From IMG/VR virus record IMGVR_UViG_3300020036_009482, positions 1-34,715 of that record: DNA of 34,715 nt. One strand, 5' to 3'. The stretch's first letter is position 1, and each line of letters starts with the position of its first letter. Source of the stretch: a virus. Of this stretch, positions 3,964 through 30,792 are shown one piece after another. The notes beneath the pieces were generated by a model. The model saw only the letters and a list, made by a program, of their open reading frames with translations. It searched no databases and was not told the DNA's origin. Position numbers and translations under genes: made by a program.

Positions 3964-4761
3964 ATGGAATCGCGCGAGCAAATCTTTGAGGAGTTTTTCA
4001 CTGCAAAGTGGATTGCCGAAGATGGGCTCGCGCGTTTAGTTCCAAAAGAAGAAGATCAAAAGGAGCCGCACTTTAATGTATTGGGCCAAGAGAGCCCTCG
4101 TAATGATAATGGCATTTTGTTTCTAGCCTATTTCATTGCCATTTCTTGGGCAGCGGGTATTCGAGATCAAGTTAGAACTAAACAACTTCAAATTGGATCC
4201 ACAATAGAGAGACTTGTAAGGCTACCGTTTAGAGGATTGTTTAATAGAAGGGCTGCCGGAGATAAAAACCCAAACAACGTTTACGAGGCGCACGACAACT
4301 ATGTCGGAATTGTTGCACTATCTACTCTTTATGGGTTTTCTTTCACTCATGAGATACTTTCTTACGGGGGACGAAAAGGATGGAACTACAACAACGTCGA
4401 ACCAGAAGTCTATAGACTCGAAAGCCAAAGACAACCAGGAGAAGTAGCTCTGTATTGGCTTTGCGCTAGCACTAGCCCAGGATTTATTGAGTTAGCCTCT
4501 TTACTTTTTGGAATAGTTATAAACATGTTTAAGCGGAACCCGGGGGAGCACATGCTTACATGGCTTCGCTTGTTTGCACTTAACCATGTTGAAATACACC
4601 AATGGTGGGCTCGTGTGCCCATAGTCCTGGTTTCCCAAATATGGAAAATAGTTATGTATTTCAATTACGATAATTTATTCACGATAACTGGCGGATATTT
4701 TGTTGAGGATCACCCTATTCGCAGAATGGCCAAGAGGCTTGGCTCTGAATGGGGGTTTTAA
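3964..4761 (+). CDS. hypothetical protein (one hydrophobic segment)
   Basis: 265-aa ORF tightly packed after the fibre gene. No motif recognised. Confidence 0.6.
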   Translation: MESREQIFEEFFTAKWIAEDGLARLVPKEEDQKEPHFNVLGQESPRNDNGILFLAYFIAISWAAGIRDQVRTKQLQIGSTIERLVRLPFRGLFNRRAAGDKNPNNVYEAHDNYVGIVALSTLYGFSFTHEILSYGGRKGWNYNNVEPEVYRLESQRQPGEVALYWLCASTSPGFIELASLLFGIVINMFKRNPGEHMLTWLRLFALNHVEIHQWWARVPIVLVSQIWKIVMYFNYDNLFTITGGYFVEDHPIRRMAKRLGSEWGF

Positions 4762-15414: not shown

Positions 15415-15586
15415 TGTTGATAAACTCATAACTTGTTTTTATTCATCACAGCGAAAGATGTTTGAATGTGATGACGGTTATAAAGATTGGGATGTAGACC
15501 CTTCAGATGCGGATGAGTATGTTGCTCATCCACCAAAAGAATATCAGAGGATACTAGAGGCGTGTCTAGGGACCAAGAGCCAGTAG
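15305..15586 (+). CDS. putative o-spanin (outer-membrane lipoprotein), overlapping its partner
   Basis: The signal MMQKLRMIGNLLLVGC contains the lipobox LVGC. The ORF starts inside the 15160 ORF in a different frame and extends beyond it. Confidence 0.55.
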   Translation: MMQKLRMIGNLLLVGCLSFGVGCASLFPTEKQCPTPNVDKLITCFYSSQRKMFECDDGYKDWDVDPSDADEYVAHPPKEYQRILEACLGTKSQ

Positions 15587-16086
15587 GTGACACAGTCATC
15601 CTTTTTGGTATTCCGCTCCCCCCTTCATCGAACCATCAATACGCCACAATCATGCGTGGGAATATTCCTATTAGGGTTCCCTCTAAGGAGTCTAAGAACT
15701 ATTCCAAGGTATTTTGGGAGTGGAAATTAGCCAATAACAAGTCTGTTAATAGAGCTCGAGACTCTATAGTTTCTTGGAAATCTCCGCTTGAGGTTGCCAT
15801 GTATGTGGCAATTAGTAGTGAAAAAATGTTTACTAAGGATGGGAGGCTTAAGAGGTGGGATGTATCAAATCGTTGTAAATCGCTTCATGACTTACTGGCC
15901 GGCATTCTTGGAGTTGATGATAAGGATTTTGTAGCTACGCCTACTGAGAAGATACTTGCTGATGTGGTAACCGAGCAGGTTGTGGTTGTAATTAGACCAA
16001 AGAAGGTAGGCAAGTTCTCAGAGTTTGATTTTTTTAAAAGTTTTAGCGGCGATAAATTTAAGATAGAGTCGCCGGTGAGTGAGTAA
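15562..16086 (+). CDS. rusA: RusA-like Holliday junction resolvase
   Basis: The segment WDVSNRCKSLHDLLAGILGVDDKDFV fits the RusA D-x-(D/S)-N-x2-K ... DD catalytic pattern. GTG start. Confidence 0.65.
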   Translation: MSRDQEPVGDTVILFGIPLPPSSNHQYATIMRGNIPIRVPSKESKNYSKVFWEWKLANNKSVNRARDSIVSWKSPLEVAMYVAISSEKMFTKDGRLKRWDVSNRCKSLHDLLAGILGVDDKDFVATPTEKILADVVTEQVVVVIRPKKVGKFSEFDFFKSFSGDKFKIESPVSE

Positions 16087-18140: not shown

Positions 18141-18701
18141 TTAATAAGGTATGTCCCCGATGGCGTGGTTGTCTTTGCCGTTGTCCAAAGGTGCAGCTCC
18201 TATCTTACGTTTAGCCTTGCAAAGAGTGCACCATTCTTCGGTTTTATCGAATTTAGATTTAAGCCACCTGTGAGTGCAGGTTGATTTATCGACAGGTTTT
18301 GTTTCACGTGAAACGGATTTAGGTGGGATTGGAGAGTCGGCAAATGTTGAGAGATCGCTTGTATCCTCGTCTTCAAGTTCTTGGGCAAAGGCGGTGCCAT
18401 ATCCTAAGAAAGCAAGAGCACGTCCTACGGCCCCCGATTCAGCTTTTTCAAGATATCCCCCTGGGAAACCCTTAGCTGTTTGCATTTTGTGTCCACGAGC
18501 TAATGTGTGGCCTGTGGAGTCGTTTATTTCGGCAGATACGATAGCCACTTGTTCGTTAAGGGTGTGGATATTTGTTTCAATGGTCCAGTCTGGATGCTCT
18601 TCGCGAAACCAAACAATACGGTGAGCTACTTGTAGGTAGTCTTTGCCTTTAAGATTTAAAAATGGCAGGTGAGTGCCTTTGGGTGTTTTAAACGTGTTCA
18701 T
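18141..18701 (-). CDS. Sak/Rad52-like single-strand annealing protein with C-terminal Cys-rich tail
   Basis: The core YLQVAHRIVWFREEHPDW...EKAESGAVGRALAFLGYG matches what I recall for the Sak/DUF1071 family. It is paired with Gp157 upstream. Confidence 0.6.
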   Translation of the reverse strand: MNTFKTPKGTHLPFLNLKGKDYLQVAHRIVWFREEHPDWTIETNIHTLNEQVAIVSAEINDSTGHTLARGHKMQTAKGFPGGYLEKAESGAVGRALAFLGYGTAFAQELEDEDTSDLSTFADSPIPPKSVSRETKPVDKSTCTHRWLKSKFDKTEEWCTLCKAKRKIGAAPLDNGKDNHAIGDIPY

Positions 18702-19222
18702 TTCACTCCTTTAGCCGGGTAGGTACGAAGTTGTTGGACGTTGGTAAGTTTAGCTCCTGGAACATCAAGACCGTTTAACAAGGCGGCTTTTATACGTTCC
18801 TTGTTAGGTGTGTAAACGGTTTTCATGTCCAGATACTCAAGAGGCAGAAGCCCTTCATCAATCACCTCAACTGCCTCTTGCGCACTGGTAAGTTTAAAGC
18901 GCACTTCATCTCCCGCGAGTTCATCGCTACCGAGGAGAATCATGGCTTGTTTAAGATTGAACCTTAAGCTCTCATATACTCGTTTATATCCCTTTGCAGT
19001 CTTAAGGTTCTTTTCGGCTTTTAACTTGTATTGACTCTCAAGGAGTTTACAGCGTTCTATAATAGCAGCGTAAGAATCGATCTTTTTCTCGCGAGCAATA
19101 ATTTCAGAATTATAACGAGCTTCGATTTCAGAGTTAATTTCACCTTGTGATTCAAGTATCTGAAGTTCGAGATCGTGCAGGGACTTGGTGATTTCAATGA
19201 GCGATTGATTTGCCACACACAT
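18698..19222 (-). CDS. Gp157-family protein (recombination-module partner)
   Basis: 174-aa coiled-coil N-terminus plus a C-terminal ...TVYTPNKERIKAALLNG..VPGAKL tail typical of siphovirus Gp157-like proteins. It overlaps the annealing-protein gene by 4 nt. Confidence 0.6.
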   Translation of the reverse strand: MCVANQSLIEITKSLHDLELQILESQGEINSEIEARYNSEIIAREKKIDSYAAIIERCKLLESQYKLKAEKNLKTAKGYKRVYESLRFNLKQAMILLGSDELAGDEVRFKLTSAQEAVEVIDEGLLPLEYLDMKTVYTPNKERIKAALLNGLDVPGAKLTNVQQLRTYPAKGVK

Positions 19223-22493: not shown

Positions 22494-22652
22494 ATGGACG
22501 AAGATAGGCTTGATGAACTGGAATATATAGTTCGTGAATCACCAAGATCCATGGTCGAACTCTACCGAACAGATGTCATCCAACTCATCGACCTCGCACG
22601 AGAAACCCTCAAAACTCAAAAAGACCAAGAGGAAAAAGATCTGGGGATCTGA
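22494..22652 (+). CDS. 52-aa helical ORF, probably the true N-terminus of the downstream HNH protein (frame broken at an A5 run)
   Basis: Not in the track because it is under 60 aa. It encodes MDEDRLDELEYIVRESPRSMVELYRTDVIQLIDLARETLKTQKDQEEKDLGI and ends inside the 22534 ORF. Confidence 0.4.
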   Translation: MDEDRLDELEYIVRESPRSMVELYRTDVIQLIDLARETLKTQKDQEEKDLGI

Positions 22653-22947
22653 CCCCGCCTTCCTCAAAGCAATCCGTAAACTACCTTGCATACTCTGTGG
22701 GAGCCCTCCTCCCACCACTGCCTCTCACATAAAAACCCGCGGCTCAGGAGGCAAAGACGAACCCTTCAACGTCACACCCATGTGCTTTGACTGCCACCGC
22801 TACTTTGAAGATAATCGCAGAATCGTAATAATGAACAAATCCTACTTTCGCCAATATCTGAAAGAATTAGGTTGGGAAATCTGGTTCCAAAACAATAAGT
22901 TAATCATGCACCACCCAAAATATAACGACAAAGTAGAAATCCGCTAA
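22534..22947 (+). CDS. HNH-type nuclease (DUF968/Ref-like; C-x2-C ... H ... C-x2-C-H)
   Basis: Motif LPCILCGSPPPTTASHIKTRGSGGKDEPFNVTPMCFDCHRYFE. The N-terminal 39 codons from the GTG are low-complexity and overlap a better-looking frame. Confidence 0.65.
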   Translation: MNHQDPWSNSTEQMSSNSSTSHEKPSKLKKTKRKKIWGSDPAFLKAIRKLPCILCGSPPPTTASHIKTRGSGGKDEPFNVTPMCFDCHRYFEDNRRIVIMNKSYFRQYLKELGWEIWFQNNKLIMHHPKYNDKVEIR

Positions 22948-23912: not shown

Positions 23913-24102
23913 CGAAGGTAAACTAAAAGTATTCACACCCAAGGGTTGGGTTAGACCCTCTCATGGGGACTATCTTATGCCTATTGACAAAACCACGACC
24001 CTCATCATCAACGGTGACGCCATGGAATATCTTATGAAGAAAGATGAGAGGGATGAACCAAGCCAAGAGTCCGTTGAATTAGACGAGCACATTGATGCGT
24101 GA
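23854..24102 (+). CDS. hypothetical protein
   Basis: ATG lies 7 nt after GGGAG. The 3' end overlaps the terL GTG. Confidence 0.5.
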   Translation: MELIKLGKRKITARKYSQVDEGKLKVFTPKGWVRPSHGDYLMPIDKTTTLIINGDAMEYLMKKDERDEPSQESVELDEHIDA

Positions 24103-25454
24103 CTCCAGAAATCGAAGCCTACGCTAGAATTATCCAGGGCCTACACGAAAAGTTCCAGCCACACCCTGCCCAAATAAAAATAGGCCAAGCCCTCATAAGA
24201 GATAACTTCAAAGACGTATTTGTTGAGGCAGGACGAAACCTAGGTAAAACAACACTCGTTTGTTACCTTCTATGGAGATGGGCTGCCCTTAACCCCGGAA
24301 GTGAGAACTACTACTTTGCTCCATACATGAAGCAAGCCCGTGAGATTGTGTGGGCATCTTATATGCTTCAAAACTTTGGTCCAAGAGAATGGGTCTTTGA
24401 TGAGAACAACACTGAGATGCGTATCCCTTTTAGAAACGGCTCATTCATCAAGGCCGATGGCTCAGACAACGTAAATGCTTACCGGGGAGTTAAACCCAAC
24501 GGACTTATCGTGTTTGATGAGTTTAAAGACTTTAGGCCAGAATTCTACGATGCCTTCGACCCCAACCGCGCAGCTTACAATGCTCCACTAATTATCATCG
24601 GCACCCCTCCTGATAGGCAATGCCAGTTCTCAGAGGTTAGAGACGCATACAAAAAGAACCCAACTAAAGCCTACTTCCACGCTCCCACCACAGATAATCC
24701 CTACATCAGTAAAGAATGGCTCGAATCAAAAAGACTAGAGCTTATTGAACGGGGCGAGGAAGACGTATGGCAAAGAGAATACCTAGCCCTGCAAGTAACC
24801 AGTGGCGCAACAAAAATATTCCCAATGATCGACAAGTCTTTAGTCAAACCTCATGGCGAACTCATGCATTCAATAATGAGAGATTTAAAACGGCTAGAAT
24901 GGATTTGGTTTGCCGATCCTGCAGCCGCCTCAACATTTGCTGTACTCTTTGTAGCCTACAACCCATATACCAAGATGCTCTATTTGCTTGATGAGATCTA
25001 CGAACAAAACCAAGCTCAAATGACTGTCGTGCAAATCGGTAAACGCATTTTAGAAAAAAGAGATGAGCTAAATTCAAGAGCCGAGTGGAGACAGGGCTAC
25101 GATGAGGCAGCAACGTGGTTTCAAAACGAAATGCTTGATCACTTCAGTGAACATCTCGAACCAAGCCAAAAGTCAGCAAACGATAAAGAAAGCGGACTCA
25201 CACTCATCAAAGACGCCATTTTAAAAAACAAAGTCGTTATTTCAGACCGCTGCGTTAAGACGTTTAGAGAGATGGATAATTATTACAAGGATAGAAACGG
25301 TAATATCCCCAAGAAAGATGACCACAACATTGATAACCTTCGATACATTCTTGCGGCCCTGTATTACTCGCTTCATTCCGAGAAAGAAGAAGAAATTGAC
25401 GATTATCCACTTGGCGGCAGGTCTACAAGTCGTAAATTAACAGGTATACTTTAG
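24099..25454 (+). CDS. terL: terminase large subunit
   Basis: Walker A-like EAGRNLGKTT, Walker B-like LIVFDEF, and C-terminal nuclease motifs (WFADPAAAS, DEIY, DDHNIDNLRY). 451 aa. Confidence 0.9.
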   Translation: MTPEIEAYARIIQGLHEKFQPHPAQIKIGQALIRDNFKDVFVEAGRNLGKTTLVCYLLWRWAALNPGSENYYFAPYMKQAREIVWASYMLQNFGPREWVFDENNTEMRIPFRNGSFIKADGSDNVNAYRGVKPNGLIVFDEFKDFRPEFYDAFDPNRAAYNAPLIIIGTPPDRQCQFSEVRDAYKKNPTKAYFHAPTTDNPYISKEWLESKRLELIERGEEDVWQREYLALQVTSGATKIFPMIDKSLVKPHGELMHSIMRDLKRLEWIWFADPAAASTFAVLFVAYNPYTKMLYLLDEIYEQNQAQMTVVQIGKRILEKRDELNSRAEWRQGYDEAATWFQNEMLDHFSEHLEPSQKSANDKESGLTLIKDAILKNKVVISDRCVKTFREMDNYYKDRNGNIPKKDDHNIDNLRYILAALYYSLHSEKEEEIDDYPLGGRSTSRKLTGIL

Positions 25455-25684: not shown

Positions 25685-27889
25685 ATGTCTAGCAACTTCG
25701 ACGCCTTTGAATCTGACTCAGATACTTACGTCAACAAACCCAAAGAAGAAATTTGGGAACTAGGGGATATCTATTCGAAAGATAAATGGGATGAGGTAGC
25801 CAAATGGCTTGTCGGCCAAAAGAACTGGCTTCAAAGTGAAAACAGAGAACGCTTTAGATCCATTGAACACAACCTCTCGTTGTATAAAGGTATTCAATAC
25901 CAATCTCAGTCGATAAAAGAATCCGCAAGAGACCAAGGTATCGATAGATCTCAAAGCATTACTAAGATCGTCAGCAATCACATTTACGATCTCGTTCAAA
26001 ACAAAGTCAGTCGATTAATTAAGTATCGACCGGGAATTGTGGCCCTACCTACATCTAACGAGCTTGAAGATAGGGTTGGCGCTAAGATGAGCGAGAGTCT
26101 CATCCGTCACATTTGGTATCTCCAAGACTTCGAGGGCAAAGTTCAAAACGAGTTTGTGAAACTTGTTCACGTTATGGGTGAGGCCTACCTTGCTGTTTTG
26201 TGGGATCCAAACCAAGGCGAAATCCACGAGGACATGAGGGATTACCTTAAGGACCTTAATGAAAAAGGTGAGGTAATTCTTAAGTCTGACGATGGCACTC
26301 CAGAACTTGATGAAGAAGGTAAACCAATCAAACTAACCAAGGCTGTTAAATACGGTGATACGGTTTATGAGATTTGGTTTACGATGGATTGTTTGCTTGA
26401 GCGTAAAGATCAGTACGCAAAAGTAGATTACATGTATCACCGGGAACTTAAGAGCCGTGGTGAGATTAAAAGAAAATATCCTGAAGCCTTAGATCAAACC
26501 ACAGCCGATGATGGCAATAATTATTACGACTACGAAAAGATGCAGGTTAAGAAGCTGCATGACAAGGTTGCGGTATGGACCTTCTATCACCGTAAGACTG
26601 AAAACCTACCTAAGGGCGCAGTAATTAAACTCATTGGAAATAAGGTGGTTGAATGTAAACCACTTCCCTACACAAGCGGACAATTGCCAGTTGAAAGACT
26701 TACTGACATTGATCTACCAGGCCAAGTTCATGGCGAATCCTTTATTACGATGATCAAAGGATTAACGGGAACATACAATAATTTAACGAACATTATTTTA
26801 AGAAACCAAGTAATGGTTTCGCATCCTAAATGGGTGTTCCCAGCTGGTTCTATTAAGAAGGAATCACTTGGTAACGACATCACACTTGTCGAATATAAGG
26901 GTCCACAGCCTCCGGCGCTAGTGCAACAAAACCCAACACCGGCTGAGGTATTTACCTTTAGAGACAACCTTAAGACTGAGTTTCAACAAATATCGGGCAT
27001 CTTTGGAGTTAGTCGAGGTGAGCCGCCTCCAGGAATTAAAGCAGGCGTTGCGCTTCAGTTCTTAGCCGAGCAAGAAAACGAACGATTTAACGAAATGGTT
27101 CTTAAGTACAACGAATGGATAAGACAGGTTGCTGTTAAAACTCTTGAGCGTTGTGCAGATAACTACGAGGCCGATGATAAACGAATGATCATGGTTCTTG
27201 GCACCCAGAATAAATGGATGACCACGTTCTTTGATGTGAAGTATTTAACTAGGAAATACGACGTTAGAGTTCAAAACGCCTCAGCCCTTCCACAAAGCAA
27301 AGCAGCTAGAACCCAATATCTTTTAGATTTAAATCAACAATTCCCTGAGCAAGTTCCTCCGGAAATGGTTTTAGACCTTTTAGATATATCTCAGCCTGAG
27401 AAGTTTATTGATTATTCAACCGCTACGGTAAGAGCGGCTGAAGCTGAGAACGAATCTATTATGCAAGGAGTGGGTAAGCTTAATGACCCACAAGACTACG
27501 AAGATCACATTATGATGTGGAAAGTTCACGTTAAACAAATGCGTGAGTGGTCATTTAAAAACCAAACTCCACAAGAGATTCAGCAAAGAATGAAAGATCA
27601 TGTAGCGGCTCACGAGATGCTCATGATTGATCGGGCTCAAAAGAATCCCGCTTATTTAGAACAGTGTATGGCATTACCAGGCTGGCCGATATTCTTCCCA
27701 ATTGAATCGGCTATGCCTGCTCCAAGCCCAGCTCCAATCGGTCCAGAAGCAGGCCCTCCCGCTGAAGGACCCATTGGGGCTGAGCCTGGTTTACCCGTGA
27801 ACATACCTCCGGCTGAACTTGTAGATCAGTTGGAGGCAGAAAATATTACGCCCACAGGAGGCCCTATCGAACCATCAACAGCCATATAG
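25685..27889 (+). CDS. portal protein
   Basis: 734-aa ORF directly after terL and before the scaffold and coat genes. It has a P/A/G-rich C-terminal tail. Assignment rests mainly on size and synteny. Confidence 0.75.
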   Translation: MSSNFDAFESDSDTYVNKPKEEIWELGDIYSKDKWDEVAKWLVGQKNWLQSENRERFRSIEHNLSLYKGIQYQSQSIKESARDQGIDRSQSITKIVSNHIYDLVQNKVSRLIKYRPGIVALPTSNELEDRVGAKMSESLIRHIWYLQDFEGKVQNEFVKLVHVMGEAYLAVLWDPNQGEIHEDMRDYLKDLNEKGEVILKSDDGTPELDEEGKPIKLTKAVKYGDTVYEIWFTMDCLLERKDQYAKVDYMYHRELKSRGEIKRKYPEALDQTTADDGNNYYDYEKMQVKKLHDKVAVWTFYHRKTENLPKGAVIKLIGNKVVECKPLPYTSGQLPVERLTDIDLPGQVHGESFITMIKGLTGTYNNLTNIILRNQVMVSHPKWVFPAGSIKKESLGNDITLVEYKGPQPPALVQQNPTPAEVFTFRDNLKTEFQQISGIFGVSRGEPPPGIKAGVALQFLAEQENERFNEMVLKYNEWIRQVAVKTLERCADNYEADDKRMIMVLGTQNKWMTTFFDVKYLTRKYDVRVQNASALPQSKAARTQYLLDLNQQFPEQVPPEMVLDLLDISQPEKFIDYSTATVRAAEAENESIMQGVGKLNDPQDYEDHIMMWKVHVKQMREWSFKNQTPQEIQQRMKDHVAAHEMLMIDRAQKNPAYLEQCMALPGWPIFFPIESAMPAPSPAPIGPEAGPPAEGPIGAEPGLPVNIPPAELVDQLEAENITPTGGPIEPSTAI

Positions 27890-29072: not shown

Positions 29073-29384
29073 ATGGCAACATTTAACTTAACCTCCGCTA
29101 CTAATCTTTTTAAGATTAAGTACGGAAAACTATCAGCAGAAACCTATAACGCAGCAAACGTAATGCTCGGACGAGTAAAGAAAGAATATAACTTTACCGG
29201 TAAGAGAATGGACGTTGCAGTTCCTACCTCCTTTTCAGGCGGTGTTGGTGCTGGATCGCTACCCCTAGCTAACTCAGCGGCTTACCAAGACGCTCAGATT
29301 ACAGCTAAGAAGAACTACTCGGTTGTTGAAATCGAGCGTGAAGCAATTGCTGCATCTGAAAATGATGAAGGCGCTTTCGTCCGT
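29073..29384 (+). CDS. major capsid protein, exon 1 of 3
   Basis: GAGGAG RBS upstream. The N-terminus is MATFNLTSATNLFKIKYGKL... The unspliced frame runs 6 codons into the insert and stops at 29400-29402. Confidence 0.75.
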
Positions 29385-29638
29385 ATGGTTATTGCGGCTT
29401 AAGGTAGGAATACCTTTTGTAAATTGGGCAAAATCGGTGAACTCTGAGATGAGAATACCGAGGTAAGCTAGAGAGTTAAAATAATCTAGCCACCGTAACG
29501 CGTAGTGGGTGACCCCCGAAAGGGAATATAAACCACCAAGAGTGTCCGACTCCCCGAACGGGAGATAATGTACGCTGAGCTAACTCGAATAAAAGGGTTA
29601 GAAGTAGGGGATAAAAAGCCTCTACGATAACAGGTCTG
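29385..29638 (+). ncRNA. group I-like (IA-type, P7.1-bearing) intron 1 in the coat gene, ORF-less
   Basis: Helices P1-P9.1 can be drawn (see findings). A paralogous copy with compensatory changes is at 30427-30683. Boundaries are inferred from P1 (CCGU/GCGG), a terminal G, and frame restoration. Confidence 0.65.
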
Positions 29639-30426
29639 ATGACCAAAGAAGTTGTTAAAAAGGGTGTTGAATCCTTTAACCGCAACATCAGCCGTCAGCT
29701 TTTCGGTTCTGGTAGCCTTGGTGTTACAACTGCAGCTGCCGCTGGCGGTACTGCTACTGCACCCACAGTAATCATTTCTACGGCTACATGGAAGGAAGCC
29801 AATTTCGAAGAAAAGGATTACATCATGGTTGATTCTGTAGCTAACCCCTACAGCACATCAAACATCTGGGAAATCACTGCGGTTGCTCCTAGCACCCGTA
29901 CACTTACTCTTGCTCGAATTGCTGGATCGGTAGACTTGACCGGTGATAGCGGAGCTAAGACTTTGTACATGCAGTATTCCAAAGACAATGAACTCACTGG
30001 TCTTAAGACTGCTTTGGACGCCACTTCTGGAACCCTTTACGGTGTAACCGTTGGTCGACGATGGCAGGCTTTCCAAAAAGCTGCCGGCGGTTCAGGTCTT
30101 ACCACCGATTTCATGAACGAAGTTATGCTCGGAGTTGAGCGTCAGTGTGGCAAAGTGCCCAACCTCATCATCACAAGCTACGTTCAATACCGCAAACTCT
30201 TGAACCAACTCGAAGATCAGAAACAATACATCATTGAGCCCAGGATGCCTGAACTCAAAGGTAAGGTTTCTTTCCGAGGCGTTGAGTTCATGAGCAATGC
30301 TGGTCCTGTAGGTGTGTTTGTTGATCGTTTCGTTGAAGACGACAGAATGTACTTCTTGAACGATAACTTCATGACCATCTATCACCGACCCGGATCTCCT
30401 GCTTGGGCAGAAGACGACGGAACCGT
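29639..30426 (+). CDS. major capsid protein, exon 2 of 3
   Basis: Open frame continuous with exon 1 after the insert is removed. It contains ...FNRNISRQLFGSGSLG... and ...WAEDDGTV. Confidence 0.75.
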
Positions 30427-30683
30427 AAACTTAGCTATTGCGGCTTGAGGTAGGAATATCTCATGTAACTTCGGGCAAAATCGGTGAACCCTGAAACGGG
30501 AATACCGAGGTAAGTTGGGATTAAAAGCCCCCAACCACCGTAACGCGTAGTAGGTGAAACTCGAAAGAGAATATAAACCTACCAAGAGTGTCCGAGACCC
30601 AGAACGGGTTAAAATGTACGCTGAGCTTATTCGAACAAAAGAATAAGAAGTAGGGGATAAAAAGCCCTTACGGTAACAGACTG
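30427..30683 (+). ncRNA. group I-like intron 2 in the coat gene, ORF-less, paralogous to intron 1
   Basis: It has the same helix set as intron 1, the same 5' context CCGT|A, and the same 3' end ...AACAG(N)CTG|AT. Confidence 0.65.
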
Positions 30684-30792
30684 ATTTCTAAGAAAAGCAT
30701 CTGCGGATGACTACGAAGGACGATACGTGTCCTATAGCGAATTCTATTGCCCCCCGTCATTTCATGGGGTGCTCACAGGACTTGCTACCTAA
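30684..30792 (+). CDS. major capsid protein, exon 3 of 3
   Basis: A 36-codon open frame with no start codon or RBS, encoding (V)FLRKASADDYEGRYVSYSEFYCPPSFHGVLTGLAT. A terminator follows. Confidence 0.65.

Follow-up and report, generated by a model that had tools for sequence, protein, structure and literature searches.

Two endonuclease-free group I introns with a shared guide in a phage capsid gene and the probable route of the second

The window, a complete phage genome of 34,715 bp with direct terminal repeats, carries two endonuclease-free group I introns in its major capsid gene, inserted at the same short target and opening with the same guide. We consider it likely that both belong to a pool of introns that spreads as DNA through co-conversion of short stretches of exon, that intron 2 is a recent arrival, and that the shared guide reflects old descent of the P1-P2 region combined with a constraint to encode Ala-Ala. 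For group I introns that lack an endonuclease, the colonization of new sites has long been an unsolved problem, and the customary case for reverse splicing is that two sites share a guide and match over a short target. Since co-conversion of DNA can bring in such a match, and a coding constraint can narrow it, it is weaker evidence for reverse splicing than it appears. The preliminary description of this genome had favored reverse splicing or transposition into a second site matching the guide; the alleles described here refute reverse splicing for the latest step, while it stays plausible for the founding step.

The capsid gene and its two introns

Terminase, portal, and capsid genes follow one another on the plus strand. 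Removal of both introns yields a single open reading frame (ORF) of 402 aa (29073-30792), the major capsid gene, collinear over its full length with intron-less relatives at 79 to 93% amino acid identity; the two introns therefore lie in one gene, as previously proposed. Many of these intron-less relatives carry PF17236 (SU10_MCP, the SU10 major capsid family). No capsid relatives were found in prokaryote genomes, and the GenBank phages searched gave one weak match only. In practice, gene callers break up the capsid gene and Rfam overlooks both introns.

Table 1. Features of the window discussed in the text
Feature	Position	Strand	Description
RusA-like resolvase	15562-16086		
Candidate Sak/Rad52-like annealing protein	18141-18701	-	Language-model features only, scores 0.91-0.94
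Gp157/Gam-like gene	18698-19222	-	Followed by the Sak/Rad52-like candidate
Free-standing HNH/DUF968-like gene	22534-22947	+	6.4 kb upstream of site 1 (6.4-7.5 kb from the two sites)
Major capsid exon 1	29073-29384	+	Codons 1-104; ends CCGT; phase 0; phrog_14242 major head, E 5e-5
Group I intron 1	29385-29638	+	254 nt, ORF-less; ends in G; P7 strands 29498-29504 and 29571-29576; P3 3' strand 29543-29549
Guide GCGG of intron 1	within 29394-29402 (guide 29394-29397)	+	In-frame GCG GCT TAA; 6-bp P10 strand 29387-29392
Exon 2	29639-30426	+	Codon 105 to second base of codon 367; starts ATG, ends CCGT; phase 2; phrog_9953
Site-2 base -3	30424	+	C in window, T in empty alleles L370, L368, L372, and L371; changes U-G wobble of P1 to C-G
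Group I intron 2	30427-30683	+	257 nt, ORF-less; mosaic; P7 strands 30543-30549 and 30617-30622
Guide GCGG of intron 2	within 30440-30448 (guide 30440-30443)	+	In-frame GCG GCT TGA
Exon 3	30684-30792	+	30687, 30690, and 30691 differ from empty alleles

Boundaries were fixed by the rule that U precedes the intron and G is its last base. Each intron then has CCGT before it, AT after it, and the guide GCGG, with codon phases 0 at site 1 and 2 at site 2, all in agreement with the preliminary description. The spliced coding sequence (CDS) contains CCGT six times and CCGTAT exactly twice, at the two junctions. Agreement in the last four exon bases is nevertheless not rare, since family sites paired at random show it in about 12% of cases.

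In both introns, GCGG is positioned for a four-pair P1 ending in U-G; across the family, the 5' exon U faces a guide G in eight of nine ungapped rows, and P1 covaries with the exon. A hand-drawn structure over 11 aligned introns places the core helices in canonical order with covariation: P3, P4, P5, P7, P8, and P9 are paired by several pair types, and P1, P3, P5, P6a, P7.1, P8, P9, and P9.1 also show several pair types among the family members. The fold z score is -4.6. P10 is adapted to each site individually, with six pairs for intron 1 and seven of nine for intron 2.

The usual group I P7 has the form GACUA/UAGUC. In P7 of this family, the G-binding G-C pair after the bulged base is invariant in all 11 rows, and the next two pairs deviate from the usual form, reading GCGUA/UACGC in the window introns (29498-29576 and 30543-30622). 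Other family members have GCAUA/UAUGC, GAGUA/UACUC, or the usual form, as seen in family scans biased towards the GCGUA/UACGC type. Between P7 and P3, both P7.1 and P7.1a are present and paired, an insertion by which both introns may be IA-like (candidates for IA1/IA3-like).

The two introns are 81% identical (84% over aligned bases). Comparing their pairs in helices drawn from intron 2, a choice that favors those helices, 46 are unchanged, 11 have both bases replaced, 5 have a single base replaced, and 6 are broken or gapped. Together with the U-G pair, the terminal G, and the reading frame restored on removal, predicted structure identifies both elements as group I introns with a long separate history. 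Rfam RF00028 matched neither at its gathering threshold or even at E 10 and missed other family members too; the Rfam group I model is known to overlook phage variants (PMC11878797). No further intron copies were found elsewhere in the genome.

As previously stated, neither intron has room for an ORF: the longest sense stop-free runs are 31 to 32 codons, and no endonuclease ORF is encoded here or in the introns of site-1 relatives. The accompanying statement that only antisense ORFs overlap the introns does not hold, as sense exon ORFs run into them by 5 and 7 codons and end in Ala-Ala-stop. Two intact ORF-less ribozymes would have to splice from the capsid mRNA, which we infer from standard chemistry: exogenous G would attack after the U of the P1 U-G pair, and the terminal G and P10 would select the 3' site.

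Capsid alleles and the arrival of intron 2

A search for capsid alleles with zero, one, or two introns, suggested earlier as a check, found all three at 93 to 99.6% identity. Near relatives were drawn from the 90% cluster of the capsid protein. Two of them, L370 and L368, have intron 1 only, and L371 has no introns; L370 is 99.6 to 99.8% identical to the window over about 21 kb. L372 lacks intron 1 and has a single intron at CDS position 1069. Intron 1 is also carried by L375 and L369, and is 99.6 to 100% identical to the window copy in L370 (100%), L368, and L375 (99.6%) and 92% identical in L369. In 27 further loci, no intron was found at either window site.

Comparison with the L372 intron, which has the guide GCCC and lies after GGGT, reveals that intron 2 is a mosaic. 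Its core (P3 to P3') is 96% identical to the L372 intron and 82% to intron 1, whereas its P1-P2 region is 72% identical to intron 1, 34% to L372, and 34 to 43% to other introns. Informative sites group intron 2 with intron 1 in P1-P2 (19:1) and with L372 in the core (19:2; Fisher p 1.7e-8). The case for mosaicism relies on this count rather than on core trees, as the alignment is short: likelihood trees of the core have no supported branches, and AU tests reject no grouping, among them a clade of introns 1 and 2 (p 0.09). The simplest reading is that gene conversion swaps cores while site-specific ends would be kept.

Origin from different intron lineages had been named in advance as an observation that would count against spread from one site to the other, and for the core this is what we see. 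The P1-P2 region upholds the other half of that proposal, since its shared ancestry implies that an intron-1-type 5' end at some time came to lie at a second CCGU site. What does not stand is the idea that intron 2 is a copy of the resident intron 1 in a waiting target, as the empty allele differs in its flanks. The L370 capsid CDS has six differences from the window, and four of these, all synonymous, fall at -3, +4, +7, and +8 of site 2. The empty site in L370, and also in L368 and L372, reads ACTGT followed by ATTCCTTCG, and the occupied site in the window reads ACCGT followed by ATTTCTAAG. Of these four differences, three create or reinforce pairs with the intron 2 guide, one in P1 and two (30690 and 30691) by adding pairs to P10. 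The predicted guide-exon duplex has -10.9 kcal/mol with the intron's own exons versus -4.3 with the empty allele. As a control, only 0.3 to 0.4% of other aligned positions have at least four differences within 10 nt on either side.

Reverse splicing leaves flanks unchanged, and DNA-level transfer co-converts them (PMC2504315). On the evidence of these alleles, the four-base footprint at site 2 is exon co-conversion, that is, DNA recombination. As the matching flanks differ from those of a 99.6%-identical empty allele, CCGU would have been imported with the intron and not have been waiting in the lineage. CDS positions 996 and 1002 match L372 and may belong to the converted tract. The direction, gain of intron 2 here as opposed to replacement in the relatives, was set by parsimony over three close empty alleles.

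It is thus very improbable that this genome's intron 1 recently reverse-spliced into a waiting CCGU followed by A in the same mRNA to give intron 2. Such an event would account for the identical target and guide and for the restriction of CCGTAT to the two junctions, and it should have left unchanged flanks and a near-identical copy. Instead, the resident empty site is CUGU followed by AUUCC, the flanks changed together with the intron, and the core matches another intron. The 81% identity with its 11 two-sided pair changes would have to have arisen since this genome parted from a 99.6%-identical phage in which intron 1 is unchanged (100%).

The same pattern is seen at the L372 intron, with three differences at -2, +2, and +5 in an otherwise near-identical stretch and predicted duplexes of -9.9 versus -2.2. 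Intron 1, too, has moved as DNA: it is almost unchanged in L375 although the exons there are just 90 to 93% identical, and L369 matches the window over all of the last 33 exon bases despite a third-position divergence of 45% (P ~0.001). Site 1 exists empty, as CCGT followed by ATGAC, in the intron-1-free L112 and L372. Around its empty site 1, L372 has a 56-nt tract identical to the window in a gene that is otherwise 7% diverged (P ~0.02), which could be a precise loss of intron 1 with the tract retained.

This tract, as a sign that loss may happen, bears on an alternative that we consider improbable, in which intron 2 is old in the lineage, its flanks adapted in place, and the relatives lost it. 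Selection in place would likewise yield flank differences of which three in four improve pairing. However, precise loss through cDNA would retain the adapted flanks, and L370, L368, and L372 share one other empty state; nor does any of the 27 further loci have an intron at site 2. We also considered whether L370 could be an assembly artifact or a cDNA product and rejected this, as intron 1 is still present in it and the flanks of its site 2 do not match the spliced product of the window.

Searches for a donor holding intron 2 returned only intact relatives (tail-region search), chance matches only on HMM check (GCGG-guide pattern scans), no match in viral contigs (a pattern specific to the intron pair), and only L259, the same contig as L368 (metagenome scan).

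Differences between the window and L370 fall in short clusters throughout the genome, pointing to frequent short-tract recombination. Dense examples lie at 23934-23955, 24752-24782, 25966-25975, and 26890-26923. The site-2 cluster is tied to the intron, yet it resembles the ordinary short-tract recombination that this phage appears to undergo. The Gp157/Gam-like gene and the candidate Sak-like gene (18141-19222) are a possible engine for it; Rad52-like phage recombinases have been proposed as drivers of relaxed recombination (PMC3945230).

Nucleases and the intron pool

In the account we favor, the introns would belong to a related pool that occupies eight or more sites of this capsid gene among related phages and moves between genomes by homologous recombination with short exon co-conversion, whether passively or set off in trans by a nuclease. 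Intron 2 would have entered the lineage recently from a donor that already held it at site 2, together with guide-fitting exon bases. Pool members would exchange cores by gene conversion and keep their site-specific ends.

Including the window, close capsid relatives have nine distinct introns at eight sites, 191 to 257 nt long and all ORF-less. In more distant relatives, introns lie after CDS positions 54 (L118 and L124), 341 (L378), and 1068 (L503), and L376 has two, after CDS positions ~1077 and ~1146. The L376 pair is a second, independent case of sister introns in one gene sharing one guide. These introns (L376:4063-4254 and 4324-4514; 192 and 191 nt, 83% identical, 69 nt apart) are of another subtype with P7 GACUG/CAGUC; both follow GGT, have the guide GCCC, and have read-throughs ending Ala-Glu-Ala-stop.

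Family introns also occur further afield. Multi-intron genes in L070:2600-4700, L352, L356, L284, L268, and L179, mostly distant SU10-like capsid genes, have up to three family introns and several ORFs of 150 to 240 aa (EndoVII-type or unclassified HNH-like). Two unrelated GCGG-guide introns, L228:635-874 and L343:5271-5543 (minus-strand count), lie between CCGT and AT directly after an apparent intein end (H-N-C) in a probable terminase-like gene. Among isolated Clostridium phages, an unannotated family match lies in the head-gene region of 39-O (EU588980; L629:2501-2640), behind a head-region gene and where no intron is annotated; phiCD211 and a Bacillus phage have comparable matches.

Endonuclease-driven homing had been judged the poorer fit, and in part this stands: neither at the window sites nor at any of the eight sites in close capsid relatives did we find an endonuclease-bearing intron. 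Across the family, about one-third of sites do carry ORFs (16 of 44 with at least 120 aa), including EndoVII-type ORFs in the distant capsid genes of L352 and L268 and a GIY-YIG ORF in a CCGT-site intron, L058. We regard it as rather unlikely that the introns owe their spread to classical homing followed by ORF loss, or to collaborative homing with a free nuclease of this or a co-infecting phage. Co-conversion is the footprint of classical homing, with short tracts known from the plant cox1 intron (PMC3192709), and the genome does have a free HNH gene. Against this, no close site retains an ORF or a remnant, and short recombination tracts occur genome-wide without introns.

The HNH gene lies far from both sites (Table 1) and does not travel with the introns. 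It is identical in L370, which lacks intron 2, and 68% conserved in the intron-less L371, so that it is present alongside zero, one, or two introns; as a collaborative homing partner it is unsupported by position or distribution. The preliminary description listed this gene and a ParB-like protein (21987) as the only nuclease candidates, a list that missed the RusA-like resolvase; in near-identical phages, ParB_N is the sole domain seen in the ParB-like protein. A 52-aa ORF (22494-22652) overlaps the HNH ORF in another frame. This overlap is unlikely to be an assembly error, as the 52-aa ORF is also called in L370 and the HNH frame is intact in L371.

The shared guide, the founding step, and known systems

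In the unspliced frame, the guide begins GCG GCT stop in both introns, giving the tails MVIAA and VNLAIAA; the intron 2 leader is 4 nt longer than that of intron 1, which exactly offsets the phase difference. Among 44 confidently called family sites, which are related to one another and were called automatically with some errors (L167 phase, L124 start), in-frame read-throughs end in Ala-Ala at 16 of 44; the remaining frames give 2 of 88 (p 2.4e-7), and long ORFs 2.7%. Of 18 sites with GCNG guides, 13 have the guide starting at a codon boundary (p 0.0009), and CGGT is the dominant exon end in the family. The hand-mapped capsid introns end in AA, AQA, or AEA, except for two at codon 18 (L118 and L124) with an immediate stop; some other family introns also stop at once, with no Ala-Ala.

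ClpX recognition of the ssrA tag depends on its terminal Ala-Ala, and the window read-throughs have an Ala-Ala free at their C terminus in the translated frame. We suggest that, when unspliced RNA is translated, these tails probably target the truncated capsid product for removal of the ClpXP type, which, if true, would give introns of bacterial viruses a quality-control function. More broadly, and as a tentative proposal, guides in this widespread, Rfam-invisible family may be dual coded, pairing with the exon and also specifying an ssrA-like Ala-Ala-stop that clears truncated capsid. Targets would thereby be narrowed to CNGU in a set frame, ORF-less introns could be harmless at many sites of an essential gene, and new sites could be reached without a nuclease, followed by short-tract spread. 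A literature search found no natural case of such quality control by introns of bacterial viruses described.

Because guides that carry the overlap must be GCNG, and their exons CNGU, a shared guide is less surprising than it seems. The shared GCGG would then have two sources, (a) old common descent of P1-P2 with an ancient move between CCGU sites and (b) the second constraint that the guide supply Ala-Ala codons before the stop.

For the ancient move itself, reverse splicing is a plausible though less than even proposition, compatible with the spread as DNA that we favor for later steps. An excised intron RNA would have reverse-spliced into another CCGU of the capsid mRNA, a host reverse transcriptase would have copied the product, and recombination would have carried it into a phage genome; the rest would afterwards have been overwritten as the introns diverged, adapted P10 anew, converted their cores, and spread as DNA. 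The P1-P2 identity of the two introns, well above that to other introns, argues for this route. The two sites share only CCGT and AT, the short match expected (PMC1299323), and L376 offers its independent sister pair with one guide. That all nine introns at the eight close sites are ORF-less points the same way (the seven of this family versus the rest, Fisher p 0.08). However, in an essential gene selection for a matching guide acts on every route of insertion, so that the match says nothing about which route was taken, and the Ala-Ala overlap restricts guides and exons further. The phage has no reverse transcriptase (PF00078), and the full pathway is without direct experimental evidence (PMC3984707).

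Twin ORF-less introns in one phage gene are already known. In Staphylococcus phage Twort, orf142 likewise has several group I introns, two of them highly similar, and exon skipping is known for the twins (Landthaler and Shub 1999, cited through PMC10136302). The Twort pair, however, is IA2 and surrounds a 23-nt exon, whereas here the exon is 788 nt, with one P7.1 bearing a P7.1a hairpin and the P7 GCGUA/UACGC. In the window, identical guides may permit exon skipping from 29384 to 30684, with a frameshifted product ending after 112 aa.

The introns TMP-IVS1, IVS2, and IVS3 of Bacillus cereus-group prophages, as given in the available sections of PMC2504315, are also related, mostly endonuclease-free, and at different sites of one structural gene. 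They are about 80% identical overall, with a P3-P7 core at 90 to 92% and divergent P1, P2, P8, and P9, and IVS1 and IVS2 thus contrast in core and periphery as the window introns do. The same sections report exon co-conversion at nrdE and nrdF sites, list a match to an intron in the major head gene of Tuc2009, and leave the spread of immobile introns a puzzle. The guides of IVS1 and IVS2 differ, whereas the window sites share one and a three-way comparison reveals the core swap; those sections mention no Ala-Ala-stop overlap for the TMP introns.

The angiosperm mitochondrial cox1 group I intron (PMC3192709) similarly has a short synonymous tract (3 to 21 bp, on the 3' side) that marks a divergent donor, but it encodes a homing endonuclease, and the tract in the window extends to either side of the intron and falls on the bases that pair in P1 and P10. 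Putative reverse-splicing pairs in fungal rDNA (PMC1299323) are related ORF-less introns at two sites sharing only 4 to 8 nt of 5' exon; here, near-identical alleles make the latest step DNA-level, and the shared-exon argument covers the founding step only. Collaborative homing of the S-PM2 psbA intron with F-CphI (PMC3984707) also joins an ORF-less intron and a free nuclease in one genome, unlike the window, where the HNH gene is far off and does not track the introns. Capsid genes of crAss-like phages (PMC7886860) are broken by several group I introns as well, mostly with intron-encoded domains. What goes beyond these systems is an allele series that separates the latest step from the founding one, a demonstrable core swap, and a guide that doubles as a probable degron.
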